Positions 26,293 through 56,303 of a stretch of 64,000 bases of DNA are shown here, in pieces (within the stretch, counting starts at the first letter, position 1; each line of letters opens with the position of its first letter). The DNA is from a virus. Under the pieces are notes generated by a model that did not search any database, had not been told where the DNA came from, and was given only the letters and a program-made list of their open reading frames with translations. A program made the translations under genes and the position numbers. The stretch spans positions 32,001-96,000 of the IMG/VR virus record IMGVR_UViG_3300026512_000003. One strand, given 5' to 3'.

Positions 26293-27260
26293 TAGATATT
26301 GTAAATGATTTAGGGCAAAAAGTTTTAATGGAAAAAGTTGCTAGTTCTGAAGATGTAAAAGGAAGATTGGCTCGTATTTCTAATTTAACTATTCCAGAGC
26401 GAGATTCTTTAACTAAAGAGGCTTTTGCGTGGCCAGAGGAAAAGCTGTTTCCTATTCATACACCTGAACAAGCATTAGTAAGTAGTGCTTACCTATCTTC
26501 TAATCCTGATGTGCCAAGCTTCGTTAAAACAGCTTGTGAAGAAGCGTGCCAACTATGGGGATATGATGTAACAATAGAACCTTTTATAAAAGAAGCTGCT
26601 GCAAAAGAAGTTCCTGAAGATATTTTTCTGCTTCCAATACAAAGAAAATTGCCTGTGGTAGACAGAGAAAGTTTTATTCGCTCAAAAGGTATTCTAGAGA
26701 AACATGCAAGCGACCTAAGTATAGGTGATACTGTTCTTGCATATAGACAACTTACAAAAAGAGCTTCTGCATTAGGAGAGACTGTCAATGAAAAAGAATC
26801 CATTTTAGGTCTTTATGGTGGAATAAAAAAAGACAGTGCTTGTGAGCAACTTAGGCTAAGGTCTTTAGAAACTGGTGATGAGAGATATGAAAAAATTGCA
26901 AGCAGTATTCAGTTAAACTTACTTACGAACCCTACTGATATTTCAAATTTTATTTTTGATGTTTCTGAAATAGATGAAGATAATAATTTCGTAAAAACTG
27001 CGTCAGAAACAATTCTTGATTTTATTGATCCAACTATACCACAAGAAGATGTATTTACTGTAGGCGATAAGTGCTTTTCTCTTGAAAAAGTTGCTAGTCT
27101 TCAGCCGAATGATTTAATAGAAATATTCAGTGAGACAGATCTTGAAAGTTTGTATCTTACTGGTAATTTGGATATAATGTCTTTACAAAAATTTGCTGAA
27201 GAGTCTCCTTCAGAAGTGCAAGAGCTTCTAGGTGATTTTATTCAAGAAAAAATACAATAG
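26286..27260 (+). CDS. putative prohead core/scaffold-like protein with ten K-x-A motifs
   Basis: MEKVAS, LTKEAF, FVKTAC, FIKEAA, LEKHAS, LTKRAS, YEKIAS, FVKTAS, LEKVAS, LQKFAE; GGAGG RBS. Confidence 0.55.
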   Translation: MLIDIVNDLGQKVLMEKVASSEDVKGRLARISNLTIPERDSLTKEAFAWPEEKLFPIHTPEQALVSSAYLSSNPDVPSFVKTACEEACQLWGYDVTIEPFIKEAAAKEVPEDIFLLPIQRKLPVVDRESFIRSKGILEKHASDLSIGDTVLAYRQLTKRASALGETVNEKESILGLYGGIKKDSACEQLRLRSLETGDERYEKIASSIQLNLLTNPTDISNFIFDVSEIDEDNNFVKTASETILDFIDPTIPQEDVFTVGDKCFSLEKVASLQPNDLIEIFSETDLESLYLTGNLDIMSLQKFAEESPSEVQELLGDFIQEKIQ

Positions 27261-33849: not shown

Positions 33850-33923
33850 AGTAGCTCCTTTTTTAAACATAAGTATAGCCATATATTCTTAAAAATCTTT
33901 GAATAAAAGCGAAGTATTAGGCA

Positions 33924-40075: not shown

Positions 40076-41086
40076 TTACATTATCCCTAACATCTTGTCA
40101 TAATTATCTACCTTGCCTGCCACAGAAGCACCTGTTATCCCAGCACCTCCATAAAACATAGCTCTATCTAGACCATTTAATTTTTTTTTAGGGCCTTTTT
40201 TGAAAAGAGACAAAGTGGAATGTCCTATATCCTGTGCTTTGTTTATAGATTTTATTGTACCTTTTGTTGCTGAAAGTGCCCCTTTTCCAAGAGCTCCCAC
40301 TCCAGTCAACCCCCAATTTAATATTTTGGAAGTAAGCATAGCGATAGCTTCTTTGTCTGAACCTTCTTTTAATAGCATATCTAACTGATGAACAGAAGAG
40401 AGGGTGTCGACCATATTTGAATGCTTTTCCCCAGAGAATTCATCTGTAGCAACTTTCGTAAGAACTTGCTCATTCATATTTAATCTGTTCACTATTAAAG
40501 GAAGAGAGTCCACTAGGTCATGTTCCATTGCAACTTTTACTAAGCCTCTAACCTCTTCTTCTGAATTAAGACTGTTTGCTATTTTGTCACAAGCAAAATC
40601 AAGAGTTTCTTTTGCTTTAAATATTAAGCTATTCTCTCTTTTTTTGTTTGTCTCAGCCTGTATGTCTTGAGCTGAAGCTATCTTCGTCATAAGAAATTTG
40701 TCGTCAGCTTCTTTTAAGAGTGTCGTGCTTGAAGATGTTTTTGCTTTAAATCTTTTAGAAGACTGTAATACGAACATATCATCAGTAATAATAAATTCAG
40801 GACGAACACCACTCCCTACATCATCAGAGGCCGTCTTAGTTAAAACAGACGCTGTCTTCTGTATGGAGCTATTAGCAGCACTGTCTGTTGACGACGGAGT
40901 TATAACATCAAAAGAAATATCACCATCTGTGGATTTATCAGCAATTCTACTTAAAAAGAATTGCTTATTTACCTCTCTAGCTAAACTAACCTGATGTGTT
41001 TCATCTAAGGCTGCGGCTTCTTTGCTAAAATCAGTATACGGATCCTCAGAGGACGCTATTTGTATTGCCAATTGTTTAATGTCCAT
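40076..41086 (-). CDS. putative internal head/ejection protein with K-x-A-rich leader
   Basis: Seven strict and two relaxed K-x-A motifs, then a basic Gly-rich tail with two hydrophobic segments. Confidence 0.55.
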   Translation of the reverse strand: MDIKQLAIQIASSEDPYTDFSKEAAALDETHQVSLAREVNKQFFLSRIADKSTDGDISFDVITPSSTDSAANSSIQKTASVLTKTASDDVGSGVRPEFIITDDMFVLQSSKRFKAKTSSSTTLLKEADDKFLMTKIASAQDIQAETNKKRENSLIFKAKETLDFACDKIANSLNSEEEVRGLVKVAMEHDLVDSLPLIVNRLNMNEQVLTKVATDEFSGEKHSNMVDTLSSVHQLDMLLKEGSDKEAIAMLTSKILNWGLTGVGALGKGALSATKGTIKSINKAQDIGHSTLSLFKKGPKKKLNGLDRAMFYGGAGITGASVAGKVDNYDKMLGIM

Positions 41087-41101
41087 TCTCTCATCCTTGT
41101 T

Positions 41102-41144
41102 GTGTATTCTAGTGTTGCCACCGAAGTGACAACTAAGAATACAC
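41102..41144 (-). other. intergenic RNA hairpin with C(UUCG)G tetraloop
   Basis: GTGTATTCTTAG-TTGTCAC-TTCG-GTGGCAA-CACTAGAATACAC; no U-tract follows. Confidence 0.7.
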
Positions 41145-42202
41145 TAGTTGCGCGCTCTATTGTATCCGTATGCAGCTCCAGCTCCAGCTCCAGCCAAAGC
41201 AGTTCCTGCTAATCCAGCAGCAGCTAAGTATTTGTTCTTTTTGCTAAGATTTCTTAGAGACCCTCTAAGAGATCCTCCTAATTCTTTTGCAGCTTCCGTC
41301 TTACCTTTACTGAGCCCTTCTGTATTACCTATACTACGCCAATGTTTGATAGTATCTTTTCTAGCAGCAGCGGCTGGACTAGTTTTTGCCCTCTTCGCTG
41401 CTTTTTGTTGAAGCTTGTATGCTTCCCTTTGTTCTGGTGTCATTCTGCGTTGAAAGTTTGTCTCACCATTCAGCTTTCGAGCTTTTTGAACTCTAGGAGT
41501 AACTGGTTTCTTTTTCCCAGGAACACTATACTCAGTATTTTTATAAAGCTCACGATTTGCGGCTATTCTTGCTTCTGTATTAGACATATCATTCAAGACA
41601 CCAGCTTCTTTGTCATACGCAATCATCGCATCTTCAGGGTGAACAACTTCTAAATCCATAAGGAAATCTTGAACTTGAGCAAGTTTGTCCTCCATATCAG
41701 CATCAAGATCACTATACTCACTCGCAATTTTTTCACCTTCTTCAGGAGACCCAATATTGTTTAGATCAGTAATTAAAGTAATTGCTGAAACAGGATCAAT
41801 GCCGTTTTCTTCTAAAAACGCATGAGCTTCTGCAACTTTATCTAAGTCTCTGTCAAGGGCAATCTCTTCCATTTGTCCATTTAGAGCTTCAGCCACTTTT
41901 TCATAGTCTTCAACTTCTAAGCCATAAGAAGCTAATTCAGCCATCGCATCTTCATCAGAATAGTTATCACTCGCCATCTTTTCAAAAACATTCACTGCAC
42001 CTAGCAGTGCACTTGGCTCAATTTCTTCTGCAATCTTAATAAGGTTCTCACCTGTGAAAAGATTTCCTTGTGTAAGGTTGTGATGAACGATTAAATCATT
42101 CACAGTCACTCCGCTGTCTTCAGCTACTTTTACCAGTCCGTCAAAATCAGCTGCGGCATCTGAAGCCATAGCAAAACTTTCAACTCTATCATAAAATGTC
42201 AT
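41144..42202 (-). CDS. putative internal head protein: acidic K-x-A leader plus basic C-terminal cargo
   Basis: Residues 1-200 very acidic with eight K-x-A copies; residues 201-352 K/R-rich, ending YLAAAGLAGTALAGAGAGAAYGY; own promoter. Confidence 0.6.
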   Translation of the reverse strand: MTFYDRVESFAMASDAAADFDGLVKVAEDSGVTVNDLIVHHNLTQGNLFTGENLIKIAEEIEPSALLGAVNVFEKMASDNYSDEDAMAELASYGLEVEDYEKVAEALNGQMEEIALDRDLDKVAEAHAFLEENGIDPVSAITLITDLNNIGSPEEGEKIASEYSDLDADMEDKLAQVQDFLMDLEVVHPEDAMIAYDKEAGVLNDMSNTEARIAANRELYKNTEYSVPGKKKPVTPRVQKARKLNGETNFQRRMTPEQREAYKLQQKAAKRAKTSPAAAARKDTIKHWRSIGNTEGLSKGKTEAAKELGGSLRGSLRNLSKKNKYLAAAGLAGTALAGAGAGAAYGYNRARN

Positions 42203-42257
42203 TATGCATTCCTTGTGTGTTAAGATTTTTGCGTATTCTCTGTGAAATACTTAAGGT

Positions 42258-42286
42258 ATTGTAACTAAAAGATATGAAAAAAGCAA
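42258..42286 (-). promoter_or_regulatory. sigma70-type promoter TTGCTT-N17-TACAAT
   Basis: Intergenic; same -35 and spacing as the capsid-operon promoter. Confidence 0.65.
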
Positions 42287-42307
42287 TAAATTTATAAGAG
42301 GGTTGTG

Positions 42308-42336
42308 TAATTCCTTGGGAGACTCCCAAGAAATTA
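42308..42336 (-). terminator. 13-bp hairpin after the 277-aa gene (terminator or 3' stabiliser)
   Basis: TAATTTCTTGGGA-GTC-TCCCAAGGAATTA, 6 nt after the stop; lacks a clear U-tract. Confidence 0.5.
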
Positions 42337-42342
42337 AGAGGA

Positions 42343-43176
42343 CTACGCTTCTCTTAAGTAAGAAACACGACAAGTTTTGCCGTCATAATCACCAGAAGTT
42401 GCAGGGACAAGCTTCCATTCAGTAGCAGAATCTCCAGCAGTAACATCAACAACATCAAATGTTCCATCATCTACTTCAACTTCAGCAGTTAACCCTACAA
42501 TAGAACCTAGCACATCATGAGCAACAGTAAAGTCGTCACCAGTAATAGCAAGACCAGTCTCTACTTCCATTACAGTAACAGAACCTTTATTGTCAATAAG
42601 GCTTTTTAATGTCTTTCCTTGCTCAGCAGACAATGGAGCTTCTGTTCCACCAGTTGTAAGATCATCAACAATTGAAGATTTTAAAACTAGAGTATCTGTA
42701 TCAATGTCTTGTCCAAGAATTTGAAGTAATTTCCAACCGTCACCTTCTTTGTACATATATGCAGCTGATTGACCTTCAAAGTCACCTAAATCAGTGTCTC
42801 CTGTAGTATCAAGAACATATGCAATCATTGTTTCAAAAGGATCAGAAATTTCATTTCTTGCATCAATTGTATCAACCATGATTGAATCATCTACAGATGC
42901 AACATAAGATTTAATTTTATCAACAGACCAAGTAGTGTCAGAACCATCAGTAGCAGTATCATCAATCATACCATCAGTAGTCTGCTCTACAGCATCAAGT
43001 CTCGATGTAATATCATCAGAAAATGTTTTAAAAGCAGCAGTAGCCACAACAGTAGTTGCATTGTTAGCATCTAAGACATCACTCAAAGTTGCTTTGATTG
43101 CAGCTTTTTCTAATTTTAATCCGAGCGCAGACTCTAAGCCACTTACGGCCCCTATTCTTCTTCTATGTAAACTCAT
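42343..43176 (-). CDS. acidic virion fibre/whisker-type protein with phage-tail-repeat motif
   Basis: IVDDLTTGGTEAPLSAEQGKTLKSLID (phage tail repeat-like) and DTTWSVDKIKSY; strong GGAGG RBS, own promoter and downstream hairpin. Confidence 0.65.
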   Translation of the reverse strand: MSLHRRRIGAVSGLESALGLKLEKAAIKATLSDVLDANNATTVVATAAFKTFSDDITSRLDAVEQTTDGMIDDTATDGSDTTWSVDKIKSYVASVDDSIMVDTIDARNEISDPFETMIAYVLDTTGDTDLGDFEGQSAAYMYKEGDGWKLLQILGQDIDTDTLVLKSSIVDDLTTGGTEAPLSAEQGKTLKSLIDNKGSVTVMEVETGLAITGDDFTVAHDVLGSIVGLTAEVEVDDGTFDVVDVTAGDSATEWKLVPATSGDYDGKTCRVSYLREA

Positions 43177-43206
43177 GGTTTACCTCCTGTGTTTTTTTGA
43201 AATGTC

Positions 43207-43215
43207 ATTATATCA
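43207..43215 (-). promoter_or_regulatory. extended -10 promoter TGATATAAT
   Basis: Intergenic, about 30 nt upstream of the 43176 ATG; identical 9-mer at 58621-58629. Confidence 0.6.
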
Positions 43216-43224
43216 CACTTTCTT

Positions 43225-43536
43225 TTAATCTTCTACATTTTCATATACAAACTTTAATTTCAAATAAAGGTTTCTTTTTTTTGTTCCATCTATAGTTGAT
43301 ACATGAACAAAAAGCGTATTTTGCGTTGTTACTATACTTTCGGTATCAAATAAAAAAGTTAGTTGACCGTCGTTCGAATCTGTTGGTTCAACTTGAAGAA
43401 CAAGATCAGTAAGTCCTTCTGAAAAACTCTTTGTTTTATACATAGCTAACATTGAGTTTGTCAGTGTATGCTCTGTATTTTCAAAGGACACGGTAAGCTC
43501 AACAGTGTTTCCGATAGTTATATATTTTGTGATCAT
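43225..43536 (-). CDS. small Ig-like/BppU-like structural protein
   Basis: YITIGNTVELTVSF...DGQLTFLFDTE beta-sandwich pattern; AGGAG RBS. Confidence 0.45.
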   Translation of the reverse strand: MITKYITIGNTVELTVSFENTEHTLTNSMLAMYKTKSFSEGLTDLVLQVEPTDSNDGQLTFLFDTESIVTTQNTLFVHVSTIDGTKKRNLYLKLKFVYENVED

Positions 43537-43548
43537 TATAAACTCTCC

Positions 43549-44874
43549 TTAGTATGGACTATATTGAATACTTGTTGAAAGTATACCATTTTGTGCTATG
43601 ACCGATTGCCCTGTAATAAAATATTTTCCTGAAGGTGGTAGAACAAAGGTAGATTCTTCTGAAAAGCCTCCACTAGAGAAGACACCGGTAGGAATTTCAA
43701 TGGAACTAGTAAAGCTTATCTTTTCAAAGCACTCACCCACTACACCGTCAACAGTAACGCTCATAGGACGAGCTAAAGCAAGAGCTTTCAAGGCAGTTGC
43801 TTTCTGAAGATATTCAAGGAGTTTTACTGTGATTTCCGTAACTACCCCAGAATAATTTTCCACTATTTCTTCAGTTCCTGCTTCCCATGGCTTATTTTTT
43901 TTGGTTATAGCTCCTTTTACAGGCTTGCAAACTATAGGTTTGTTAAGAAAAGTAAGCTCTTGATTAGACAACTTGAATACATCTATCCGGAGCAAAGAAG
44001 GTACAGAATCGACCTGTAAATTTGCTACTTCTCCTACTGCTATAGATCTTCCAAAATCATACTCAAAAGCTTGTGTAAAATAGTGAGCACTTCCTTTCAT
44101 AGAGGAATTTTCCATTATCGCTTGTGTCATATTTGAAGATGCCTGACTATTTGCTAAATCAGAATCTATTATTGTACCTTCTCCAGATAAGTGTAATGTT
44201 TGTGTTTTAGGAAGAGCTCTAAAATCAGTTGACATTGATCCTTCTATTATGTCTTCCATACTGATTTCGCTTTCATTTTCTTTAGGTGAGAACAATCTTA
44301 ACACAAACTTGTCATTTGAAGTTTGGTCTATATATAAATTAAGCCCCCTATACACAGTAGATAAGAAACTTGCTATTGTAAATTTTGTTGTTCGACCAAC
44401 CTGATTTATCATTTCTACTGAAGGCTTAAAAAATTCATCAATATTTTTAAAGAGTTCTATCACTTCTGGATCAGCTACGAAAGTGTAACTAGATTCTCCA
44501 GATATAACGATATCTGCTAAGGTAGATAGTGCAGTATTTATGTCAAGAATGCTATTCCCTAATTGCATAGCTTCTTCAGGCGACATAATTTTATATGGAG
44601 TGTTTACATCTTCTGTTGCAGAAACAATAATCACTTTTTGCAGATCTTGGATAATTGCCGGAATAAAGGTTGCTGCAGAAGTTGTTCCTCCTGTAGAAAA
44701 ATTTGTTCCTGAAGAGGCTAATAAATATCCTTCAGGAGGGACAACCGTTGTTCCAAGAAAACAAGTTACAGAAAGTGTAAAAAAATTTATAATTCCATTA
44801 AAAGTACTTCTTGCTTCTACGGAGATTACTTCTTCTCCTATAACAGACTCAACTAAATCACTCCCTACTCCCAT
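43549..44874 (-). CDS. putative baseplate hub (gpD/gp27-like) protein
   Basis: C-terminal SGKYFITGQSVIAQNGILSTSIQ resembles hub C-termini; context supports it. Confidence 0.4.
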   Translation of the reverse strand: MGVGSDLVESVIGEEVISVEARSTFNGIINFFTLSVTCFLGTTVVPPEGYLLASSGTNFSTGGTTSAATFIPAIIQDLQKVIIVSATEDVNTPYKIMSPEEAMQLGNSILDINTALSTLADIVISGESSYTFVADPEVIELFKNIDEFFKPSVEMINQVGRTTKFTIASFLSTVYRGLNLYIDQTSNDKFVLRLFSPKENESEISMEDIIEGSMSTDFRALPKTQTLHLSGEGTIIDSDLANSQASSNMTQAIMENSSMKGSAHYFTQAFEYDFGRSIAVGEVANLQVDSVPSLLRIDVFKLSNQELTFLNKPIVCKPVKGAITKKNKPWEAGTEEIVENYSGVVTEITVKLLEYLQKATALKALALARPMSVTVDGVVGECFEKISFTSSIEIPTGVFSSGGFSEESTFVLPPSGKYFITGQSVIAQNGILSTSIQYSPY

Positions 44875-46211
44875 TCCACAATCTCCACTATGCTTGTTTG
44901 CATTTTTACTACATCTAATAAATTTTCTACTGTACCAATTGCAGATTCTGTGTTAATAATCATAGGTCTGTTCGAAAATACTTTTTGTGTTTCCGATATA
45001 TATAAAGAGTGATTTTGAGTTACTTTCGTAAAAAGGTCTTCTTTGTGAAAAAGTTGATTATTTTTCAAGTAAAGCAAAACCGAACCGATATTTACAACAT
45101 CTGAAAATGTGAGTGCAAAATCATGAGCTTCAGCATTTTCTATTTTCAGTTGGTTATCTTCAGTGTATACACCTAAAACTCTTTTTAAAGCAACAGGAAG
45201 ATTGCTAATAGTCACATCTACTTCATCATGCAAACCTTTTGAAATTTCCGATACTTCTAATAGATTTGTAGGAACCCCTAGAAGATTTAACATATCGCTA
45301 GAAAAAAGCTGGGTATTTGTTATAGCTGAGCTTGTTTGTGCTATTGTTATGTTTGAAGATAAAAAAGACTGAGCTGTAGATGCTATTTGTTCTAGTAAAT
45401 CCTCAGTACATACAGTATCATCTGAATCTGTTGTCCCTATTCGAATAGGCATCCAATTGCTACCATCCTTAAACAGGCAAACGCTTCCTATATTAGTAGG
45501 AGTAACTAAACTTGTAGAGATAGAACATGAGGTTGCATTAACATTAGAGGCCACCACAAGAGGAATATCGTTAGTAATAGATATGTTGTCATTTGCAACT
45601 GAAACAACATTGCTGATTAACACCTCAGATGAAGCAGATAATGTTTTTTTATCGAGATTAATAGCGCTCATCTTTTTTGCCATTTCCAATGAAACTCCAG
45701 AATTCATATCGGAGCTATCAGAATGAGATATAACCTTCCGTGTAATAAACGGAGCTTTTTTTGTTAAAAAATTGTCTTCATAATATTTAATATCAACAAT
45801 ATCATCATCTTCAAAAGATAAATCTTGAGAGTACATAAGTTCTATTTGAGGACTTGTCTCGTCTTTTTTAATAAAATCTTCTGCTAAATATTCAATTTGT
45901 GAGGTAGTGATTTTTTTTGGGAAAAGTGAGAAATCTGATACTGTAGCATGCTCATTAATTATCAGTTCACCAATTGCGTTCTCAATGTATATTCCAGCTG
46001 GAGCTTCAACTATTCTTGATGTAGGTACAGTATTAAGGATACCGATCTGAATTGATTCTATATCTGTAGAATGCCGAACAAGATTACATGTTGCATTCTG
46101 TCTAGCAAAGATAGTATTATCAATCAGCTCTTGAAGTGACACAGAAACACCTATTGATGAAACCCTTATAAAGTCAACTATAGATTTGTATTTTGTAAAA
46201 TCAAATTTCAT
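44865..46211 (-). CDS. hypothetical protein (448 aa), probably baseplate/tail
   Basis: AAGGAG RBS; overlaps the hub-like gene. Confidence 0.6.
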   Translation of the reverse strand: MKFDFTKYKSIVDFIRVSSIGVSVSLQELIDNTIFARQNATCNLVRHSTDIESIQIGILNTVPTSRIVEAPAGIYIENAIGELIINEHATVSDFSLFPKKITTSQIEYLAEDFIKKDETSPQIELMYSQDLSFEDDDIVDIKYYEDNFLTKKAPFITRKVISHSDSSDMNSGVSLEMAKKMSAINLDKKTLSASSEVLISNVVSVANDNISITNDIPLVVASNVNATSCSISTSLVTPTNIGSVCLFKDGSNWMPIRIGTTDSDDTVCTEDLLEQIASTAQSFLSSNITIAQTSSAITNTQLFSSDMLNLLGVPTNLLEVSEISKGLHDEVDVTISNLPVALKRVLGVYTEDNQLKIENAEAHDFALTFSDVVNIGSVLLYLKNNQLFHKEDLFTKVTQNHSLYISETQKVFSNRPMIINTESAIGTVENLLDVVKMQTSIVEIVEWE

Positions 46212-46221
46212 TGAGTACTCC

Positions 46222-46896
46222 TTAAACTTCGGCTAAAACATGCTTATTCAGATCAAAAGTTTGTTGCTCTAAATCAGATGTTTTTTTATATAGATTTCTA
46301 TCTAATGCAGGAAAAGGAAGAGCGCTTTTAAAAATATTAGCTGCTTCTTGGTCCTGTATTCGCATATTATATATTGTGGATGTTTTTGTTCCAGGTCTCA
46401 TAGTGTACCATTTTCCAACTTTAAAGTCACAAGTAAAAACAAAACCCTCGCTGTTATTAATCACTATTTTATCTTTAGATGAAAGAACATAAATAAAGAG
46501 TCTTGTTTTTTTTGGGAAAACCTCAGCTATCCCTTTTGCTTTTGCTTGCTCTTTAGCATAACCTCCTCTTTCAAGTTTTGCTCCGACCGAAGGAAGCTCA
46601 TACACATCTGTTAAATCTTCTTTTGCTAAAATCTTACCTCTTTTTACAGATATTTCATATGTAGAAATAAAAACACCTATGTTGATGTTATCTGCTTTTT
46701 TTGGTGAGGTTAGAAAAAACATTCTTGCATTTTTGTCATACCTCAATCCTGCAATATGTTTAGATTTGTCTTTGTATTCCACATTTCTAACATCCATAAA
46801 ACCAATTATACTTTTTCCTCTAAGTGCTGTTGCTATTCCAGAAGCTTTATCTTTGTAGTACTTAGACAAGCTTGCATTTATTACTATATTCGCCAT
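46222..46896 (-). CDS. basic hypothetical protein (224 aa)
   Basis: GGAG RBS, TAATG coupling. Confidence 0.6.
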   Translation of the reverse strand: MANIVINASLSKYYKDKASGIATALRGKSIIGFMDVRNVEYKDKSKHIAGLRYDKNARMFFLTSPKKADNINIGVFISTYEISVKRGKILAKEDLTDVYELPSVGAKLERGGYAKEQAKAKGIAEVFPKKTRLFIYVLSSKDKIVINNSEGFVFTCDFKVGKWYTMRPGTKTSTIYNMRIQDQEAANIFKSALPFPALDRNLYKKTSDLEQQTFDLNKHVLAEV

Positions 46897-47207
46897 TAAT
46901 ATTCTCCATGTGTATATTTTATTTCAAAAGGGAAAATATTCCCTTTAAAGATATGCTGACATTCGAATAAAATAGAACCATACGATTGAACTGAATTCAC
47001 GACTTTTAGATTTCTTATTCTTAAAATATTGCGTAAAACAACCCCAATATTAGAAACATCAGACAGCCCATACATAAACATGTTTAGTTTCTTTAACTCA
47101 AGAGGTGGTGTTTTTGGCAAAATGCCTTTTTTATTATCGAAACGATCTAAACTTCTTGTATCAGAAAGAACATTTGTCTCATAAAGAGACACTATTTGAG
47201 TATTCAT
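46896..47207 (-). CDS. hypothetical protein (103 aa)
   Basis: AAGGA RBS, coupled. Confidence 0.55.
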   Translation of the reverse strand: MNTQIVSLYETNVLSDTRSLDRFDNKKGILPKTPPLELKKLNMFMYGLSDVSNIGVVLRNILRIRNLKVVNSVQSYGSILFECQHIFKGNIFPFEIKYTHGEY

Positions 47208-47216
47208 TATTGTTCC

Positions 47217-47423
47217 TTAATATTGGTATGTCACTAGCTTTGTCAGCACGCCATACTGATCCCAGTTTTCAATTTCGGACAGTAGCATTTTTTCGGTGTC
47301 TGTGGCAATCAAAGTAAGCAACTCCTCATACATAGCAATGTCATCAGTATCATTTAAGATAAACTGTTGAACTCTTATTCTAGGAGGCTTAGAAGTAAAT
47401 AAGTACTTCTTTACCCAACGCAT
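47217..47423 (-). CDS. small hypothetical protein (68 aa)
   Basis: TAATG coupling with the upstream gene. Confidence 0.55.
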   Translation of the reverse strand: MRWVKKYLFTSKPPRIRVQQFILNDTDDIAMYEELLTLIATDTEKMLLSEIENWDQYGVLTKLVTYQY

Positions 47424-47623
47424 TATTGTCTTCCAATCTTTTGATCAAGGAAACTAAATAAACGGCTCATATTGGCATATGCTTCTTTGCTGCATCTATA
47501 TAATTTTCTTTTTATTATTTGCAAATCACTTAAAGTGATATTATCGGCTAACCATGCTACTCTTTTTTCCTCAAGCAAATTTCTCATTTTTGTGCAACTC
47601 ATTGATTGTATATCTATTGCCAT
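47423..47623 (-). CDS. small hypothetical protein (66 aa)
   Basis: AAGGAG RBS. Confidence 0.55.
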   Translation of the reverse strand: MAIDIQSMSCTKMRNLLEEKRVAWLADNITLSDLQIIKRKLYRCSKEAYANMSRLFSFLDQKIGRQ

Positions 47624-47639
47624 GATTACATTCTCCTTT

Positions 47640-47861
47640 TTATTCGACTATAATATCTGCAATTGTCTCATAAAGTCGCTTCGAATGACCTTTTGCTAGC
47701 AAAGAATCACAATGTCCAAGAATATCTCTGTTTGTTATCCCATCTTTTTCAGAAAAAGGTTTTCTTTCACTTGATTTAGTATCCACAAAAAAATTATATA
47801 CTTTTGACAAAGAAGATAATTCCTTTTGAGATAGATTCTGTTGCTGTTTCGCTATTTTCAT
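47640..47861 (-). CDS. small hypothetical protein (73 aa)
   Basis: AGGGAG RBS. Confidence 0.55.
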   Translation of the reverse strand: MKIAKQQQNLSQKELSSLSKVYNFFVDTKSSERKPFSEKDGITNRDILGHCDSLLAKGHSKRLYETIADIIVE

Positions 47862-47881
47862 AATTTCAACTCCCTACTTAG

Positions 47882-50800
47882 TTATGCTGTATGATATGTC
47901 ATATAATCTTGACTAGTATGTGTTTTTCCAAAAATATCTATAAACTTTACTTTAAATTGAACTTCACCTGAGCCATCTCCAGAATAGGTAGCTTTAAAAG
48001 TATTTCCTGGATTACTGGTTTCAACTAAAGTAAGCTTAGTAATATCAAAGTCAGAGATAGTACTTGAAACATCCTCGAAACCTACTGCATTCATGTCTTT
48101 TAGTAAAAGTCCATCAGGCGTGAAACCAAGAAAAGCTTTATAAGGAAAATCTTGTCCAAAATCAACAGACGAAGAACATTCAATTAAAATAATCACATCT
48201 TCATCTGAACGAACATGCACATCTAACTCCATTTTTTTTGAAGAGCCATTAAGAGATGCTGAGAAATATGACAGAATTTCTTGTTTTTTAAATATATCGT
48301 TTTCTTGTACAAAACACGCTTCTTTAAAAAGTGTGCCAGACATAGTTGGAAAAACATTACTAAAAGCATCTTCTATATCCGTAGAATAAGAAAATGCTTT
48401 TGAGCCAGAAATTAAGCATATCCAAACAAGAAACCAATCATAAGGTAGTAAATCTGTTTTCTCCTCATCATCAGTAAATAAAAGCCCTGTAATTGAATCA
48501 AAATTTGTCTTCCAATCAGAGTAAGCAATACTATCCCCTTTACTTTTTAAATAAAAGAATATTTTTAAAAAAATTGTATGTAGAGCATTTTTATGATTAG
48601 TGTTATTTTGTGTCATAATAGTATTTAGTAGAAGAAGTGTTCCGAGTTCCTCTTTTGTTAAGACAGTTGTGTATGAATGATAAAGCGTTTGTAGCATAGA
48701 CTTAGCGCTATTTATAGAGACTATGTCTCCCCCATCAGTAATCTCAACAGCATCCATTAAAATACTCCATAGGGAATCTTTATGTTTTTTTGAATATCCT
48801 GAAAGAGAATGGTTTATAGCCAGACTTAAACTATCAGCAAAATATCCTTTTCTTACTATCTCACCATAACAGTAATCCTCAGCAGAAGAATCACTTATTT
48901 TTGCTTGAAGTTGATATTTCGTTATTTTATGTTGGCATAAAGACAATGGAACTTTTTCTTCAAGATATCTATCTTGTATATAAAGACTTTTATTGCTTTC
49001 TATGTTGGATATCTCAAAATCTCCTTGAAAAAGAAGAGCTGTATAACTATCTATTAACATGCTAGCATCAAACGGATATACTTTTTCTGTTAAAGGCAAT
49101 GCCATTTTTCTAAAGTTTCTAAAATACAAATCTTTCACTGTTACATGAGAATCTATAGGAACACCATCTATGCCATAATTGTTATCTGGACTATCTTCAG
49201 GGTCATCTGTTCCAAAAAGTTCTATTGCTAGGTCTTCTTGCACAAAAAATTCAGTGAGATAATAGTATGGTGCCACAAAAGCACTTGCTAATGCAATAAA
49301 GCGTTCTTCTCGTAGATCATCGTCAAGAGAAGCCGCTAATCTAAAAAGAAATGTGTATTGTTTTTTGCTATATTTCTTTTGAGGTACCCTTGCATCCATA
49401 ACAAAGTTTTCAATAGTTTCCTCCGATACTCCATAGCTGTCTTCAATCCAGCATTTTTCATAGTTAGAAAAAAAAGCTTTCTTGTCGGCATGTTTTTTGA
49501 CACTTATATCTTCAGTACACAGAGCGTTTAGACTACCAAAAATTTTATTCCCCTTGTATAGTCTTTCAGATAAAATTTCAGAAAAAGTGTTGTTTTCAGT
49601 TCCAAGAATTTTTTTCTCGTATACCACAGGAGCAATCGTTGTGAGAACCTCTCGGAGGGAATCTTTTGTAGCTAAACAATTAGAGCCTGCTTCTGCAAAA
49701 AACCATCTATCGGCTAGACCAGCTTGAGTAGAATTAAAAGGAGTTTCTATAACTGCACTTCCTCTAGGTACAGGATTAATACCCTCTGAAGAATGAATTA
49801 GATTTTCTGAACTAGCATTGATTATTTTAGATGCTTTTCTAATAAATCTACCTACAGAACAAACACTGTTTTCACTTGATGAAATTGGATGAGAAAGTAT
49901 TGGTCTGAAAACATTTGAGGGGTTTGCTAAAATACCATCAAATGTAAGTTGTTGAGCCTCATATTTATTTAAAGGCATTTTCTTATGATAGATTTGCCCA
50001 TGTTGTTTTTTTAAAAATGAAAGCTCAAACGAATCTAATTTAGGAAGTTCTTTAAGATCATTTCTCAAAATAGTGTTTCTTTCTACAGGGATAGTGTAAT
50101 TATTTTCGCCAGAGTTTGACAAGGTTATCTGTTCCCCAGCCGTCGTTGCAGTCAATACTATTTTTGCACCTTCTGTATTAGAATTCATAGAGAGATTTGC
50201 ATCATTTATTTTGGTCTCAAAAAGAGAAGCTAGTTCGCTTTCTGAACTCACTGCTTCCTGAGAGGCATCAATCGCCGTTTCGGTATCTGCTAATGTAATA
50301 GAAAAAGTATCTTCTTTGTTGAATTTAACAATTGTACATTCTGAAATTTGAGGGGTTGCTGCATTATAATTAGAAATATCAGTAACTTCGACTTGCCATG
50401 TATCCCCAGAGACAAAAGAAACATCAGCATCTCTAGTAAAGGAAATTTGCATCTTACTCTGAAACTGTTCCAATGTGACTGTGTCATTATAGGGATATTC
50501 GTCATCGTCCTTAAATCCATCCATCTTTATTACTTCAAACGGAGCTTCATCAAAAGTATTAACAAGATCAACGATATCAGCAATCAATGGATATACAACA
50601 TCTGAGCCATCATGCTCAAAAGTAATCGTTATTTTTTTTCCTCCACTGTCTGTATCAGAAGCCTCTATAGTTAAATCGTGTTCATCTGAAGGAGTAATCA
50701 TTTCCACTATATATTCTACATCTTCAGTTTCATCCCGAACTAACCAGTTAAAAACTTTATCACCATCATCATCCTTAAAAAGCATAGAGTAATATCCCAT

Positions 50801-51700
50801 TGTTGCTACAATGTCAATTCCGTCAACTTCAGCCAAAGCATCTTCAAGACCCGCTTCAATATCATCCAATGTATCATCAGTAGCATAAGTGTAAGTATAA
50901 TCTGTTCCATCTATTCTAATGGAATGATTCACTTCTTTTAATCTAATCAAGTTAATAATAGTAACATCGTCTGTTCCAGCTACAGGTTCCTGTGTTGTTA
51001 CAAATTGAGATATTTTAGAGCCACTACCATTTAATTCTGCATCTGTTAAATTTTGATTTATCTCTCCAACAGTTGCATCAGATAGCTCTATCCCTGCAAT
51101 ATCTTTCTCGAAAGAAAGTTTGATGTTTTTCATTCTACCAAATCTAGGGAGTATATTAAACCTGTTAGAAAAGGAGTTTCTTGAAATCATATAGTTTGGG
51201 CTTAGAACATCTTCTGATACAATACTTTTGGTTACAGCAATCTGTTCTCCCGTTTTAAAAATTGCATTACTTTTTTTTGAAAGCTGTTTTTTTGTTAGTG
51301 TGTTGGAAATCCAGGAATATTCAGTACTTATTTTATCGTCAAGTGTTATTTTTTTTGGAACAAAAGTACTTATCATTTTATTTTTAATATTTGCACCTGT
51401 CCATGCATCTTGAGATTGAGAAGTATAAGCAGACGCAACAACAGAAATGTCACTTGTCTCTAGGTGAAATTTATTTCCAGTTCCTATCTCTGTGTCACTT
51501 ATTGATTTTATAATTCCAACAAGTTCTTTTGTGACTATTTTTTTGTTGCTCATCCCTAACCCCTGTTTAAAATAATTATTTTTGTCTTTTTGCAGTTTAC
51601 TCATCATATTATCAAAGCTACAGACAATGCCTTCAACACTTTTTGAAAGACCTTGAAGACTTCTCCCAACAGATAGTGCTTCATGTTCCTGAGAGGTCAT
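47882..51700 (-). CDS. large virion protein (1272 aa) with acidic sheath-insert/Ig-like repeats
   Basis: Acidic central region with HSIRIDGTDYTYTYATDDTLDDIEAGL and DTFSITLAD...LFETKINDA...KIVLTATTAG modules, as seen in tail-associated proteins. Confidence 0.55.
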   Translation of the reverse strand: MTSQEHEALSVGRSLQGLSKSVEGIVCSFDNMMSKLQKDKNNYFKQGLGMSNKKIVTKELVGIIKSISDTEIGTGNKFHLETSDISVVASAYTSQSQDAWTGANIKNKMISTFVPKKITLDDKISTEYSWISNTLTKKQLSKKSNAIFKTGEQIAVTKSIVSEDVLSPNYMISRNSFSNRFNILPRFGRMKNIKLSFEKDIAGIELSDATVGEINQNLTDAELNGSGSKISQFVTTQEPVAGTDDVTIINLIRLKEVNHSIRIDGTDYTYTYATDDTLDDIEAGLEDALAEVDGIDIVATMGYYSMLFKDDDGDKVFNWLVRDETEDVEYIVEMITPSDEHDLTIEASDTDSGGKKITITFEHDGSDVVYPLIADIVDLVNTFDEAPFEVIKMDGFKDDDEYPYNDTVTLEQFQSKMQISFTRDADVSFVSGDTWQVEVTDISNYNAATPQISECTIVKFNKEDTFSITLADTETAIDASQEAVSSESELASLFETKINDANLSMNSNTEGAKIVLTATTAGEQITLSNSGENNYTIPVERNTILRNDLKELPKLDSFELSFLKKQHGQIYHKKMPLNKYEAQQLTFDGILANPSNVFRPILSHPISSSENSVCSVGRFIRKASKIINASSENLIHSSEGINPVPRGSAVIETPFNSTQAGLADRWFFAEAGSNCLATKDSLREVLTTIAPVVYEKKILGTENNTFSEILSERLYKGNKIFGSLNALCTEDISVKKHADKKAFFSNYEKCWIEDSYGVSEETIENFVMDARVPQKKYSKKQYTFLFRLAASLDDDLREERFIALASAFVAPYYYLTEFFVQEDLAIELFGTDDPEDSPDNNYGIDGVPIDSHVTVKDLYFRNFRKMALPLTEKVYPFDASMLIDSYTALLFQGDFEISNIESNKSLYIQDRYLEEKVPLSLCQHKITKYQLQAKISDSSAEDYCYGEIVRKGYFADSLSLAINHSLSGYSKKHKDSLWSILMDAVEITDGGDIVSINSAKSMLQTLYHSYTTVLTKEELGTLLLLNTIMTQNNTNHKNALHTIFLKIFFYLKSKGDSIAYSDWKTNFDSITGLLFTDDEEKTDLLPYDWFLVWICLISGSKAFSYSTDIEDAFSNVFPTMSGTLFKEACFVQENDIFKKQEILSYFSASLNGSSKKMELDVHVRSDEDVIILIECSSSVDFGQDFPYKAFLGFTPDGLLLKDMNAVGFEDVSSTISDFDITKLTLVETSNPGNTFKATYSGDGSGEVQFKVKFIDIFGKTHTSQDYMTYHTA

Positions 51701-53491
51701 TTAGTCTTCCAAATTCTCTAATCTATCATAAATGTCATCAAAGTTGTTTTTCTGACTATTTGTTAGTGCTACTATTTTATCTCTAACGACCTCTTGACCT
51801 TCTATGAGAGCCTCTACACTATCCATAATATCAGTAATTAATGCTGATGCTTTTGTTTGCATCACAGAAACATCATTATCTCTATATATAACTTCTAAAG
51901 GAACAAGTAACGGATCTGTTTCATCAGTAATTTCTACAAAATCAATTTCAAAAGCAGAACAGTTTCTAATATATAATGCAATACGACAGTCACTGTAAGC
52001 TGCTTCGGATAAGTTCATATGTGATCCTTGCATTTTTTCAGAATAACCACCAAATAATTTTCTACAAGAAGTAACTTTACCTATTGGACTAAAACTAACA
52101 GTCATCTCATATTTTTCCTCTCCATTTGTAATAAGAGAACCTTCTAATGGAATATGTCCACTAGTCATCCCTGTTCCTTTTATGTCGTATATGAAATCTT
52201 GCCCACTTTTGTCTTTTGAAAGGATTGTTCCTTTCATTACTTCGGGAATCGCTTCAAAAAGTGTATCATGATTATTACTGCCTACAATAATTGGCCAAGA
52301 ATGATCAGAAATATCACTAAATGTTTGCATTGACTCAGGAAGTGATCCTTTTTGGATACCAAACATTATATTGAATCCACCTCTCTCTTGAAGCATTGGG
52401 TAGTTTTCAAAAGCATCATTCCAACTGTTTGCTGTTTTTTTACTACCAGATGTACCTGTCAACACATCATTAACACTACTAGGAACATTACCTATTTCAA
52501 CAAAACTAAGATTGTTTACAATCCCGATAGACCAACCATTTCCAGCTACCACATCTAAGAAAAAATTTCCATTCTCCCCAGTAATAGTATTAGTTCCATC
52601 CACATCTTTGCCCCAGGTAATAATCTCACCATTCTCTGTGATAGCACTTATTATTTGTTCTCCACAAGATACTTTTTTCGCAGTAATATTAGGCTTGTCA
52701 TCAACTTGCCCAAACTCATTATCTCCAAAAATATCAAAAGTACCATCTGTATGTAGAAGTGCAAGATTGTTGCCTTGCCCTGTAATTTGCACTGCTTTAT
52801 TGTCATCCCCTATATCTAAACCAATCACTGATACATTTCCTGAGTTAAAAATAGCTGCATAGAAATCTTCACCTGCACAAATATCAACTATCATATTCTC
52901 ATCTACCGTAGTCCATTCTGTTGGGAGAGCCAAATCTCCATCTCTATCGGAACCATAAAAAGTAACTGTGCCATTTTGTCTGAGTGCAATAGTAAAACCT
53001 GCGCCAGTTGCAATTTGAGAAATAGTTTCTAAGTCTTCAAGGTCTAGCTCAGCATTATCATTTGAACCTTGAAATCCAAATAGAGAACCTGATTTCACAA
53101 TAGTGTGAGTAGAAGAAGTGTCTACCCCATAAAAAGTTCTTCTTTGATATGAGTCTACATTCTCTCGGCGATCTTCTTTTTGACACCCATCAGACAAATC
53201 ATTTCCTGACCAGAGGTTATCACTATTGGGAGCCTTAGTAAGGAAAGCAAAATTGTCTCCAAATGAACTTCCAAAAGTACCAGAACGAACAAAAGGAGAA
53301 AAAGGCTGTGCTTTAAACACAATTCTTAATGTTTTGTTTGCTGCTGATAAGTCGAAAGATTCTCGAGAAACAATACCAATCAAATAATCATCTGTTTCTT
53401 CTCTTTCTATGAATAAAGAGCCATCTGTTCTTGCTTGCACTGCATTGCTATTTGAAACAAAGTCAGAACTAGTTAATACGGTAGTCGCCAT
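51701..53491 (-). CDS. RCC1/BLIP-II repeat beta-propeller protein
   Basis: Repeats ISQIATGAGFTIALRQNGTVTFYG, IVDICAGEDFYAAIFNSGNV, AVQITGQGNNLALLHTDGTFDIFGDNEFGQ, KKVSCGEQIISAITENGEIITWG, FLDVVAGNGWSIGI; C-terminal coiled coil. Confidence 0.8.
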   Translation of the reverse strand: MATTVLTSSDFVSNSNAVQARTDGSLFIEREETDDYLIGIVSRESFDLSAANKTLRIVFKAQPFSPFVRSGTFGSSFGDNFAFLTKAPNSDNLWSGNDLSDGCQKEDRRENVDSYQRRTFYGVDTSSTHTIVKSGSLFGFQGSNDNAELDLEDLETISQIATGAGFTIALRQNGTVTFYGSDRDGDLALPTEWTTVDENMIVDICAGEDFYAAIFNSGNVSVIGLDIGDDNKAVQITGQGNNLALLHTDGTFDIFGDNEFGQVDDKPNITAKKVSCGEQIISAITENGEIITWGKDVDGTNTITGENGNFFLDVVAGNGWSIGIVNNLSFVEIGNVPSSVNDVLTGTSGSKKTANSWNDAFENYPMLQERGGFNIMFGIQKGSLPESMQTFSDISDHSWPIIVGSNNHDTLFEAIPEVMKGTILSKDKSGQDFIYDIKGTGMTSGHIPLEGSLITNGEEKYEMTVSFSPIGKVTSCRKLFGGYSEKMQGSHMNLSEAAYSDCRIALYIRNCSAFEIDFVEITDETDPLLVPLEVIYRDNDVSVMQTKASALITDIMDSVEALIEGQEVVRDKIVALTNSQKNNFDDIYDRLENLED

Positions 53492-53493
53492 AA

Positions 53494-53862
53494 TTATGCT
53501 CCTATCTCATGTCTAAAACGATTATCTAGTTGCTCAAAAATAGCATCTCCTAAAGTAGTTGCAATTGTAGATATGTAAGCTAAATCAGAATTACCAGCTT
53601 CTTCAGCAATCTTAATGATGTCTTCAGGTGTAGTAGCCTGTTCCATTTGAGAAGCAACTTTTTCTAGAGTTTCGCTTAAATCAAGTGGCGCACCTATCTC
53701 TTGTTCTATTTGAGTCGCAACATCTAGTGTTTCCTCAGCTTCTTTTACTAAAGCAGTTCCTTGTGCAAGTGAGCTTAAGCTAAGATCTTTAGCACTCGCT
53801 GTTTTTTGTAACGACTGTTCTTCGCTTACTGATTGAATTAGATTACCTATATTTACTTCCAT
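53494..53862 (-). CDS. acidic K-x-A-motif protein (putative prohead core/scaffold)
   Basis: LQKTAS, LVKEAE, LEKVAS, IIKIAE in 122 aa. Confidence 0.55.
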   Translation of the reverse strand: MEVNIGNLIQSVSEEQSLQKTASAKDLSLSSLAQGTALVKEAEETLDVATQIEQEIGAPLDLSETLEKVASQMEQATTPEDIIKIAEEAGNSDLAYISTIATTLGDAIFEQLDNRFRHEIGA

Positions 53863-53875
53863 TTTGTATTCCTTT

Positions 53876-54406
53876 TTAGTTTGGTTTAGAGTAGATACCT
53901 TGAATAATTAGTGTTATTTTACCTAAAATCTGGCAAGAACTCAAGACAGATCCCTCACCTTCAAGTTTTTCTGTTTGACCCCAAAGTACAAGATCTGCTC
54001 CAGATATATTAGGATGTTCTGTCTTTAAGGCACCCATTGCGGATGTTAAAAGTGTCTCAACAACGATATTGCTTATTTTTTCTGTCTCTAAATAAGAGTT
54101 CCCTACACAAGTGAATTGAATAGGGTAGTCTATAACATGCATAGTGTTGTAAATATTTGAATTTGTATTGACATCGAATATTTTTTGTTCATTCATCATA
54201 AGAGATTTTGGTACATGAGACAATTGTCCTCTTTCTATAATAACAAGAGGTGCCCTCTGTGGATTTTTTTTAAACGAATCTCTCACCACTATTTCTGTAT
54301 CCGTATTTCCAAGATTAGCAAACTCTTCAGACAAAAACTTTTTATAAATAGAAAGCATATCTCTGAATAGTAAAAGCCTATCTCCAGTATCTCCTCTAAC
54401 AAACAC
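53876..54406 (-). CDS. putative tail completion/neck protein
   Basis: IVVRDSF...PLVIIERG...YPIQFTCVGNSYLETEKISNIV pattern of gpU/tail-terminator-like folds. Confidence 0.5.
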   Translation of the reverse strand: MFVRGDTGDRLLLFRDMLSIYKKFLSEEFANLGNTDTEIVVRDSFKKNPQRAPLVIIERGQLSHVPKSLMMNEQKIFDVNTNSNIYNTMHVIDYPIQFTCVGNSYLETEKISNIVVETLLTSAMGALKTEHPNISGADLVLWGQTEKLEGEGSVLSSCQILGKITLIIQGIYSKPN

Positions 54407-54409
54407 AAC

Positions 54410-54865
54410 TTACTCTTTTATATGATACTTATCAGACAAAGCTTTTTTGTATGCTTTTGCCCTATCTGTATCTTTGCCTACAAGGTTTTCTCTTGCTCCT
54501 TGCTGTTTATTATATTCACTTCGCTGTTTTTTTAAAGATAACACTCCTGAAGCAAGAGCTCCAAGACCTCCAATAATCCCTTTTTTTCTTGTTGCAGAAA
54601 AAATTTTTCCAGAGTCTTTGTTAATTAAAGTATTACCCATTAGGTAAGCAAGCGATCCACCTGTAGCAATATCTTTTGTCGTCTCTTCTGAAGAAGAGGG
54701 AGCTGAACGCTTACCTTTTACATCTGCTAATAATTCGAGTTGTGCAAGTCTCTTATTTTCTAAAGAACCCTGGTCATCTGCTATTTTGTCCCCAGTTACA
54801 GGATCAAAATTTTCAAAAGCAAGTAGTCCTATTTTTTTATTTTTATTTTTCTTATATTTCTGCAT
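54410..54865 (-). CDS. basic protein with glycine-zipper segments (possible ejection protein)
   Basis: IATGGSLAYLMG and GIIGGLGALASGVL flanked by K/R residues. Confidence 0.5.
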   Translation of the reverse strand: MQKYKKNKNKKIGLLAFENFDPVTGDKIADDQGSLENKRLAQLELLADVKGKRSAPSSSEETTKDIATGGSLAYLMGNTLINKDSGKIFSATRKKGIIGGLGALASGVLSLKKQRSEYNKQQGARENLVGKDTDRAKAYKKALSDKYHIKE

Positions 54866-54866
54866 C

Positions 54867-55472
54867 TTATATTTCCCTAATCGAAGTGTCGTATGACTTT
54901 TGTGCTGAACCTAGCAAGCCATAAGTATTTTGAAAAGCGTTATTGCTTCTCCCTCCTCTTTGTTGAATCTCTGCAAGGTTTTTGCTAGTTGCTATATCAA
55001 CTCCACCAACAGCATGTGCTGTTGTCAAAAAAGTTGTAGCAAGTTCAGGATCTTTAGCTGCTCTAGGAGCGATAGTGTGAGCACTGTTCAGCCAATTTCT
55101 TAGTTTGCTATCTTTTACAGTTCTCAATGAAGGATTTGTTTGCTTTGCATATGCAATTAAGCCTGGTACTTTTTTCCTAAATTTCATATCATTATATTCA
55201 TCTGTCAAAGCTTCTGCACCAAGCCCAACTCCTGTTAGGGCTACAGCCATTGGTACAGCTTCAGCTAAAGCTGTTCCAATATGACCAAAACTAAAAGAAG
55301 CTTCTTTTTGTATTTCGTCTGAAATTGTAGGACTGTCTTTAAGCATTTTCAGCAAAGTATTCGCTTGTGCAATTTTTACAAAAGTTGTTTCAGAATCTTC
55401 TGAGAATCCATTTTTTTCAACTTCTTCCGCTAATTTTATTAATATCTTTTCCATATTATTAATGTCCTTCAT
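54867..55472 (-). CDS. putative internal head/ejection protein with K-x-A leader
   Basis: LIKLAE, FVKIAQ, IQKEAS followed by hydrophobic FSFGHIGTALAEAVPMAVALTGVGLGA. Confidence 0.55.
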   Translation of the reverse strand: MKDINNMEKILIKLAEEVEKNGFSEDSETTFVKIAQANTLLKMLKDSPTISDEIQKEASFSFGHIGTALAEAVPMAVALTGVGLGAEALTDEYNDMKFRKKVPGLIAYAKQTNPSLRTVKDSKLRNWLNSAHTIAPRAAKDPELATTFLTTAHAVGGVDIATSKNLAEIQQRGGRSNNAFQNTYGLLGSAQKSYDTSIREI

Positions 55473-56285: not shown

Positions 56286-56303
56286 AGAATTATCCTTTAT
56301 TTG

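Follow-up and report, generated by a model that had tools for sequence, protein, structure and literature searches.

Why should a phage encode proteins in which an acidic repeat gives way, at a Lys-x-Ala (K-x-A) motif, to a basic part rich in glycine and alanine? The question is raised by three genes of an uncultured phage, called here 40076, 41144, and 54867 after their positions in the window, a 64,000-nucleotide stretch that represents bases 32,001–96,000 of a 165,427-base phage contig (IMG/VR record IMGVR_UViG_3300026512_000003). Our analyses make it probable, if well short of certain, that these proteins are head-core precursors trimmed by the prohead protease, which would leave cationic peptides inside the head. 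All three open reading frames, and the sequence stretches quoted from them in a preliminary description of this DNA, were found where that description had placed them, with K-E-A triads at residues 198–200 of 41144, 245–247 of 40076, and 56–58 of 54867. The features concerned are the following.

40076..41086, minus strand: predicted head-core precursor 40076, 336 amino acids, with a conserved N-terminal domain (residues 1–62), a K-x-A leader, a boundary, and a cationic amphipathic tail of 89 amino acids.
40346..40354, minus strand: boundary K-E-A of 40076, residues 245–247; the Lys column that is conserved in the family is two residues downstream.
40079..40345, minus strand: predicted mature peptide of 40076, 89 amino acids, net charge +9, 17% Gly.
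41144..42202, minus strand: predicted precursor 41144, 352 amino acids, with a very acidic repeat leader (net charge -39, seven K-x-A sites) and a Lys/Arg-rich tail of 152 amino acids.
41603..41611, minus strand: boundary K-E-A of 41144, residues 198–200; K-E-A in every tail-bearing family member examined.
41147..41602, minus strand: predicted mature peptide of 41144, 152 amino acids, net charge +21.
54867..55472, minus strand: predicted precursor 54867, 201 amino acids, with a 58-amino-acid leader carrying three sites, a helix (residues 59–90) that is amphipathic and then hydrophobic, and a conserved helical domain (residues 91–175).
55299..55307, minus strand: boundary K-E-A of 54867, residues 56–58; at least 90% of 24 homologs keep K56, A58, and F60.

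By capsid protein (24849) and putative head protease (60021), the nearest cultured phages are Salmonella phage Arash and Vibrio phages D69, D148, and D181, and the portal, the terminase, both RNA polymerase chains, and a sigma factor are likewise common to the window phage and Arash; the protease also matches gp19 of phage G and cluster C mycobacteriophages. The host is probably a member of the Campylobacterota, because the single-strand binding protein is 65–75% identical to those of Sulfurimonas, Sulfurospirillum, and other Campylobacterota. Arash is a myovirus with a contractile tail, whose RNA polymerase chains rank with the most-detected virion proteins (PMC10585845). Family scans of the three precursors against PHROGs and Pfam yielded nothing meaningful, tblastn against cultured phages gave no match, and the ESM Atlas gave no usable one; the links to Arash proteins were found by local phmmer and profile searches. 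Protein 40076 is the counterpart of Arash gp220 and D69 0268 (profile E-value of 1.8e-6 to Arash gp220), and 54867, the true start of which is probably Met7, is a homolog of Arash gp221 and D69 0269 (profile E-values of 4e-13 to gp221 and 3e-8 to D69). Protein 41144 appears equivalent to Arash gp223 plus gp224 by position and composition, without detectable homology. Promoter-like sites around 40076 and 41144 occurred at chance level only.

K-x-A is a genuine motif, dense in the leaders and missing from the tails, as judged by a matrix trained on other proteins only (26286, 53494, 60021, 24082, and one protein outside the window, plus their homologs), which often scores leader sites high and tail sites never: a score of at least 3 was reached by 48% of leader sites in the 40076 family, by 0% of tail sites, and by 4% of other sites in the genome. 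The consensus from the trained matrix is hydrophobic-x-K-[VTEI]-A-[SE], and genome-wide the triads K-E-A (43 seen, 20.5 expected), K-I-A (33 and 19.7), K-T-A (24 and 15.2), and K-V-A (24 and 15.9) all occur in excess. The leader of 40076 contains eight K-x-A sites, six of them strong, and the literal K-x-A triads that lie past the boundary, at 267 and 270 in 41144 and at 268 in 40076, all score low on the matrix.

According to the preliminary description, the last motif copy in each protein marks an abrupt change in composition. This holds for 41144 and 40076, for neither of which was a single one of 300 shuffles as good; the two proteins rank 1 and 4 among 171 proteins of the genome, and in both the best change point falls 11 residues past K-E-A. 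It does not hold for 54867 alone, where the best change point (residue 57) adjoins the site but is equaled in 91 of 300 shuffles and is thus not significant. The net charge passes from -13 in the leader to +9 in the tail of 40076, from -39 to +21 in 41144, and from -4 to +4 in 54867. Across the 40076 family, all leaders are acidic and all tails basic (+5 to +15), and the change point lies no more than 10 residues from the boundary in 19 of 20 homologs, these being related sequences and not independent observations. The charge switch and the conserved boundary together bear out the precursor architecture first proposed, an acidic leader followed by a basic Gly/Ala-rich part with K-x-A between them. 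What the boundary keeps is Lys-x-Ala generally, and not K-E-A, which had been taken as the last motif copy throughout. The boundary triads of the 20 members of the 40076 family are KIA (4), KVA (4), KEA (3), KKA (3), and others (6), and those of the 24 members of the 54867 family include KEA (10), KTA (5), KNA (2), and KQA (2), Arash gp221 having K-S-A; the middle residue is fixed only in the 41144 family. Given this variability among homologs, a special role for K-E-A as a terminal signal is not supported and was rejected.

Beyond the boundary, the three types of tail differ from one another, and all are cationic. Tails of the 40076 type are 27–113 amino acids long, about 24% identical between members, and open with F/I/L-L/G/I-G. 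Tails of the 41144 type are 86–152 amino acids long, carry charges of +13 to +21, and each end in an uncharged Gly/Ala run of 16–24 residues (24 in 41144 itself). The mature part of the 54867 type, about 140 amino acids, includes a small helical domain that is its best-conserved portion; an AlphaFold model is confident for residues ~91–160 only (an earlier model from four sequences was poor) and gives most of mature 54867 the look of a soluble helical domain. Fold searches returned one uncharacterised phage protein and weak helical-bundle matches, and scans for the 54867 family yielded no further genomes. Four relatives of 41144 are polyproteins of the form leader-cargo-leader-cargo, and in the two that were checked the duplication starts exactly at K-x-A, which gives the first cargo of the polyproteins a copy of the motif at either end. 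The gap between 41144 and 40076, just before the ribosome site of 40076, is filled by a long, imperfect hairpin (41102–41144, minus strand) whose loop is C(UUCG)G; there is no T-run behind it, and it is therefore not a plain terminator.

If the motif is a cleavage site, the enzyme and the major substrate of head maturation should carry it, and both are encoded in the window.

60021..61274, minus strand: putative prohead protease of the phage G gp19/Arash gp222 family (phrog_18299, head maturation protease, E-value of 3e-13).
24849..25826, plus strand: major capsid protein, in which the invariant K-E-A at residues 26–28 (nucleotides 24924–24932) is the likely maturation site.

The protease has invariant His89 and Ser140, and its K-x-A triads at residues 29–31, 212–214, and 223–225, which bracket the domain, are invariant across six proteases down to 28% identity; phage G gp19, a clear homolog (probability of 99.7%), keeps two of the three, the first two, at the same places. 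Four further invariant Cys/His residues (150, 153, 165, and 167) form a Cys-x2-Cys...Cys-x-His insert at residues 150–167, likely a zinc finger, which is also found in phage G gp19 and in gp94 of mycobacteriophage Catera. The capsid protein of phage G is shortened from 282 to 255 amino acids with the loss of 27 residues, as determined by N-terminal sequencing (PMC5646251), and its mature N terminus aligns one residue after the capsid K-E-A at 26–28. For the second capsid K-E-A, at 162, close relatives have K-A-A, Arash and D69 offer no aligned site, and the matrix score is -8.5; it was dropped as a cut site, and K-E-A as the end of the capsid motif series was not confirmed. Sequence comparison thus indicates that K-x-A is probably the head-protease site in this lineage. 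The cut may follow either the Ala or the Lys of the triad. The HK97 gp4 protease cuts after Lys103 of gp5, and hydrophobic-x-Lys also fits the HK97 cut rule. Repeats of K-x-A occur in phage G gp7, gp11, gp19, and gp21; in Catera gp93 and gp94, R-T-A is, by eye, used alongside K-x-A, which hints at a basic-x-Ala cut code across the wider family. Our literature searches found no description of the K-x-A motif in the lineage of Arash, Vibrio D69, and phage G.

The motif also runs through acidic proteins that lack a cationic cargo.

24082..24384, plus strand: scaffold-like protein, 100 amino acids, with two sites and an acidic tail (-6); positional counterpart of Arash gp225, not cationic cargo.
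26286..27260, plus strand: acidic cargo-less protein, 324 amino acids, with 10 K-x-A sites against 1.3 expected (p 1e-6); probable core protein, resembling Arash gp242 by eye.
53494..53862, minus strand: acidic leader-only protein, 122 amino acids, with four sites; probable core protein.

One short motif is therefore common to the protease, the capsid N terminus, the core proteins, and the cargo leaders. Protein 24082 had been linked to 54867 through the residues that follow K-E-A in both, which shift position in homologs; with its acidic tail as well, 24082 was ruled out as a sister cargo.

The leaders had been proposed to keep the cargo inert in cis. A leader with that task should be always present and large, and neither holds, which leaves the proposal unsupported: cargo of the same type is made with leaders of 6–8 residues or none. 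A short leader ending in the motif opens four of seven basic Gly/Ala-rich genes elsewhere in the genome versus 18 of 207 others (p 0.002), and G001 and D69 also have genes that open in this way. An extra cargo gene of 82–86 amino acids lies between the homologs of 41144 and 40076 in two related genomes; it encodes 86 amino acids with a six-residue K-E-A leader in G001 (G001:C1 147502–147762), and its ortholog in G002 (G002:C1 42085–42333) has no leader. In Arash and D69, an acidic repeat gene is directly followed by a basic Gly-rich one as separate genes. The leaders fit better, by analogy with T4 and SPN3US, a role as core or scaffold material and as loading handles. Outside the window, the contig (G000:C1) holds basic, mostly Cys-free, Gly/Ala-rich genes at 9216, 19010, 156380, 157163, 160578, 153120, 11214, 4336, and 100508; four of these have a 7–28-residue leader ending in K-x-A, 156380 has a longer leader, the others have none, and several end like 41144, with a Gly/Ala run, a Tyr, and a basic tail.

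The presence of such proteins in virions, as earlier supposed, is suggested by mass spectrometry (MS) of Arash, the window phage itself being uncultured: the counterparts gp220, gp221, gp213, and gp224 are listed in its virion MS table (PMC10585845). The ratio of observed to possible peptides is lowest, among 22 Arash proteins, for gp220 (0.30) and gp225 (0.15), and eight peptides of gp221 were seen where the mature form offers eight.

What we infer, that is, the cutting, the bond cut, packaging in the window phage, and all tail functions, would run as follows. Made as precursors of internal head proteins, 40076, 41144, and 54867 would join the prohead core through their acidic leaders, together with the leader-only proteins 26286, 53494, and 24082. 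The protease 60021 would then cut itself, the capsid protein, and the leaders at K-x-A, so that the acidic parts are shredded and exit, and the last K-x-A would set the N terminus of the basic Gly/Ala-rich mature part, which, because the motif is lost from the tail, would survive and stay inside with the DNA. Judging by composition, the 41144-type tail would most likely bind and neutralise DNA and be ejected with it, and the 40076- and 54867-type tails, with their surface-seeking helix, would most likely attach to the periphery of an anionic membrane, either in assembly or once ejected, and not make a dedicated channel. T4 and SPN3US mature their head cores by such proteolysis (PMC9026906, PMC10052503).

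Several observations weigh against this proposal. No cut has been observed in this lineage, and 60021 falls below every curated Pfam or NCBIfam cut-off. The reported phage G cut follows A-L-A, not K-x-A, and has no Lys at P3. The Arash virion preparation contained 116 proteins, many metabolic enzymes among them (PMC10585845), the peptide identities behind its MS table are unpublished, and its coverage figures are implausibly high; coverage percentages were discarded as evidence on cutting. The motif-rich Arash proteins gp242 and gp218 show all possible peptides (ratio of 1.0), so that the particle may retain some proteins rich in the motif. No such leader is present on the chains of the Arash virion RNA polymerase; a leader is thus not required for all packaged proteins and is not the only route in. 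One relative of 41144 is a leader only, without a tail, and the junction motif of the polyproteins arrived with the duplicated leader and is not fully independent of it, which makes the polyproteins suggestive and not proof. A 790-amino-acid motif-rich homolog of Arash gp218 is encoded at 157436–159808 of the same contig (G000:C1).

A different use of the tails is possible, although we are doubtful of it: as pore-forming or fusion-like peptides that the leader would hold inert and the protease activate, and that after ejection would breach or reshape the host envelope, serving there as a passage for DNA and the large virion RNA polymerase or making up a protective compartment. Apart from their charge, the F/I/L-L/G/I-G opening of the 40076 tails, and the Gly/Ala run at the end of every 41144-type tail, a surface-seeking 11-mer lies within the first 20 tail residues in 13 of 20 members of the 40076 family, and a surface-seeking N-terminal helix is found in 12 of 24 members of the 54867 family, against a background of 9%. 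Helix 59–90 of 54867 shows 50% conservation, Arash virions contain a large RNA polymerase, and pore formation is described for T7 gp14 and other podophage ejection proteins (PMC8954989). The amphipathic cargo of the preliminary description is thus partly supported for these two families and not for that of 41144 (1 of 9), and the N termini of the window's own 40076 and 54867 lie just under the surface-seeking line. The Gly zipper helices also described do not stand, because in none of the three families does the number of Gly pairs at a spacing of four clearly exceed that in shuffled sequences (13 vs 10.8, 0 vs 8.2, and 9 vs 11.2); the stretches in question are uncharged Gly/Ala-rich runs rather than zippers. 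The neighboring protein said to share these helices has only two short Gly-rich stretches:

54410..54865, minus strand: 54410 basic protein, 151 amino acids, of cargo-like composition, with no clear cut site, no composition switch, and one weak K-I-A only.

Hydrophobic peaks (KD19) reach 1.17–1.56 in the tails versus 1.69–1.93 in the holin- and spanin-like genes of the phage, and each of the three precursors has at most one marginal hydrophobic run. This weak hydrophobicity, the divergence of the 40076 tail in length and sequence, the soluble-looking domain of 54867, and the contractile tail of Arash, which already spans the envelope, speak against a trans-envelope conduit or a membrane compartment, and cargo with minimal leaders or none speaks against activation by leader removal.

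Equally open to doubt, though possible, is that function resides in the leaders, as a size-determining core or scaffold, and that the tails are remnants of low information content or an electrostatic glue, helping the acidic core to condense or tethering it to the inner membrane during assembly, and are idle after infection like the T4 core fragments and IPII and IPIII. In 40076, the N-terminal 62 residues are better conserved than the tail (48% vs 24%), the leader-only relative of 41144 and the separate adjacent acidic and basic genes of Arash and D69 point the same way, and the proheads of T4 and SPN3US assemble on the inner membrane, T4 IPII and IPIII being dispensable (PMC9026906, PMC10052503). 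In 54867, however, the mature part is more conserved (50–61%) than the leader (41%) and holds a confidently predicted domain, and a remnant would hardly account for the many independent short-leader cargo genes or for the duplication of whole cargo units. Both explanations qualify the head-core precursor proposal and do not exclude it. A bolder extension of that proposal, which we hold to be rather unlikely, is that in Arash-like phages the head protease matures a library of capsid-stored cationic amphipathic peptides, some derived from polyproteins, which are ejected to act on the host inner membrane, either to admit the genome together with the virion RNA polymerase or to depolarise the cell; this would be prepro-peptide delivery in a contractile-tailed phage. 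Prepro-antimicrobial peptides carry an acidic pro-piece and then a cationic amphipathic peptide, an order that the precursors described here resemble.

It is improbable that K-x-A is merely a short binding motif, for capsid, scaffold, or protease, in proteins that stay whole. The full peptide recovery of Arash gp242 and gp218 and the phage G cut without a Lys at P3 would agree with this, and the 54867 model places leader sites in or at the ends of helices, at low confidence; yet the motif brackets the protease domain, lies within one residue of the reported capsid cut, and is depleted from the tails, and SPN3US keeps some propeptide peptides despite proven cutting (PMC10052503). That mature 54867 is instead a partner of the packaged RNA polymerase, with its helical domain (residues 91–160) resembling sigma-factor domain 2, is very unlikely, for although sigma-factor chains account for about 15 of the 50 best structural matches (best Z of 6.1, root-mean-square deviation of 2.6 over 69 residues) and 54867 shares its strand with the beta-prime gene, which it follows at a distance of ~0.8 kilobases, a Z of ~6 is ordinary for small helical bundles and is tied by a T1-like head-tail adaptor (Z of 6.0), the 24 family members gave no sigma match in Pfam, PHROGs, or Protein Data Bank sequences (profile-profile probability of 0.4%), and the phage has a separate sigma gene.

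Among known systems, the T4 head core offers the closest parallel in organization. It comprises gp22, gp67, gp68, IPI–III, and Alt with capsid-targeting sequences, which are leaders of 10–19 residues ending in L/I-x-E, after which gp21 cuts (PMC9026906). As in T4, a three-residue motif is repeated in acidic core proteins and shared by protease and capsid, and cargo can carry a short leader. Unlike in T4, the motif is hydrophobic-x-K-x-A, the cargo is cationic and Gly/Ala-rich, leaders in the lineage of the window phage range from 6 to ~270 amino acids (58–247 in the three proteins), some genes encode polyproteins, targeting and cutting are predictions here, and there is no sequence similarity; the window precursors are not members of the T4 capsid-targeting/IP family and would work alike by analogy. 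Ejection proteins of SPN3US and phiKZ have propeptides of 20–254 residues with many motif copies and multiple cuts by gp245 at A-x-E (PMC10052503). The multi-motif propeptides, and the large head with a virion RNA polymerase, are similar, whereas the protease family and the motif are different, and maturation here would leave short basic peptides or a single small helical domain, with no PHROG or Pfam match. Within the lineage itself, Arash (OQ632216; gp220, gp221, gp222, gp223/224, gp225, and gp213) and Vibrio D69, D148, and D181 have homologous capsid, protease, and 54867- and 40076-type proteins with the same boundary; the Arash proteins were published as "structural proteins" only, with no motif, processing, or function described (PMC10585845), and the genes are contiguous in Arash and D69 but scattered in the window phage. 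Phage G is similar in the K-x-A repeats of gp7, gp11, and gp21, in the flanking motifs of gp19, and in the gp27 cut that aligns with the capsid site, and differs in its A-L-A cut and in that no basic Gly-rich cargo was seen in 24 kilobases around gp19. The podophage ejectosome likewise draws on small head-internal proteins of partly hydrophobic or amphipathic character, and its gp14-like members (T7 gp14, P22 gp7) have two to five predicted transmembrane helices, do not vary in size, and belong to an operon of three genes in phages with short tails (PMC8954989). The precursors differ from this T7 gp14/gp15/gp16 type in having scattered genes, at most one marginal hydrophobic run each, and tails of 27–113 amino acids, and the nearest cultured relative is a myovirus.

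Other genes of the window deserve mention. At 55459–58046, upstream of 54867, a C-terminal beta-prime RNA polymerase chain is directly followed by holin-like, inner-spanin-like, and lipoprotein genes and then by 54867, a strand-continuous run kept in genomes G001–G003. The sigma-factor-like gene at 27834–28454 (Sigma70_r3, E-value of 1e-9), which lies amid head genes, is a homolog of Arash gp10, and gp10 is listed in the Arash virion table. GroEL-like and GroES-like genes are found at 32180–33882, their same-position homologs matching Cpn60 and Cpn10, and a further GroES-like gene lies outside the window (G000:C1:154489). A tape-measure-like protein of 1396 amino acids (33924–38114) has a Gly-rich hydrophobic stretch at about residues 110–145 and a strong composition change at residue 179, beside a weak K-Q-A; Arash gp4 opens similarly. 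The protein encoded at 51701–53491, which has RCC1-like repeats, is possibly part of a tail fibre or spike.

Protease-trimmed internal proteins are already known from other phages; the literature searched yielded no precedent for the motif, the lineage, the cationic Gly-rich cargo, or the polyprotein forms. Together, these data provide a testable maturation code for the lineage of Arash, Vibrio D69, and probably phage G, whose head proteins have so far been only "structural proteins," and predict exact mature N termini in a cultured phage. If leaders of 6–8 residues suffice for loading, they would represent a second capsid-targeting tag besides that of T4, and if the tails act on membranes, this would bear on how myoviruses bring a large RNA polymerase into the cell and may provide a source of new cationic peptides.

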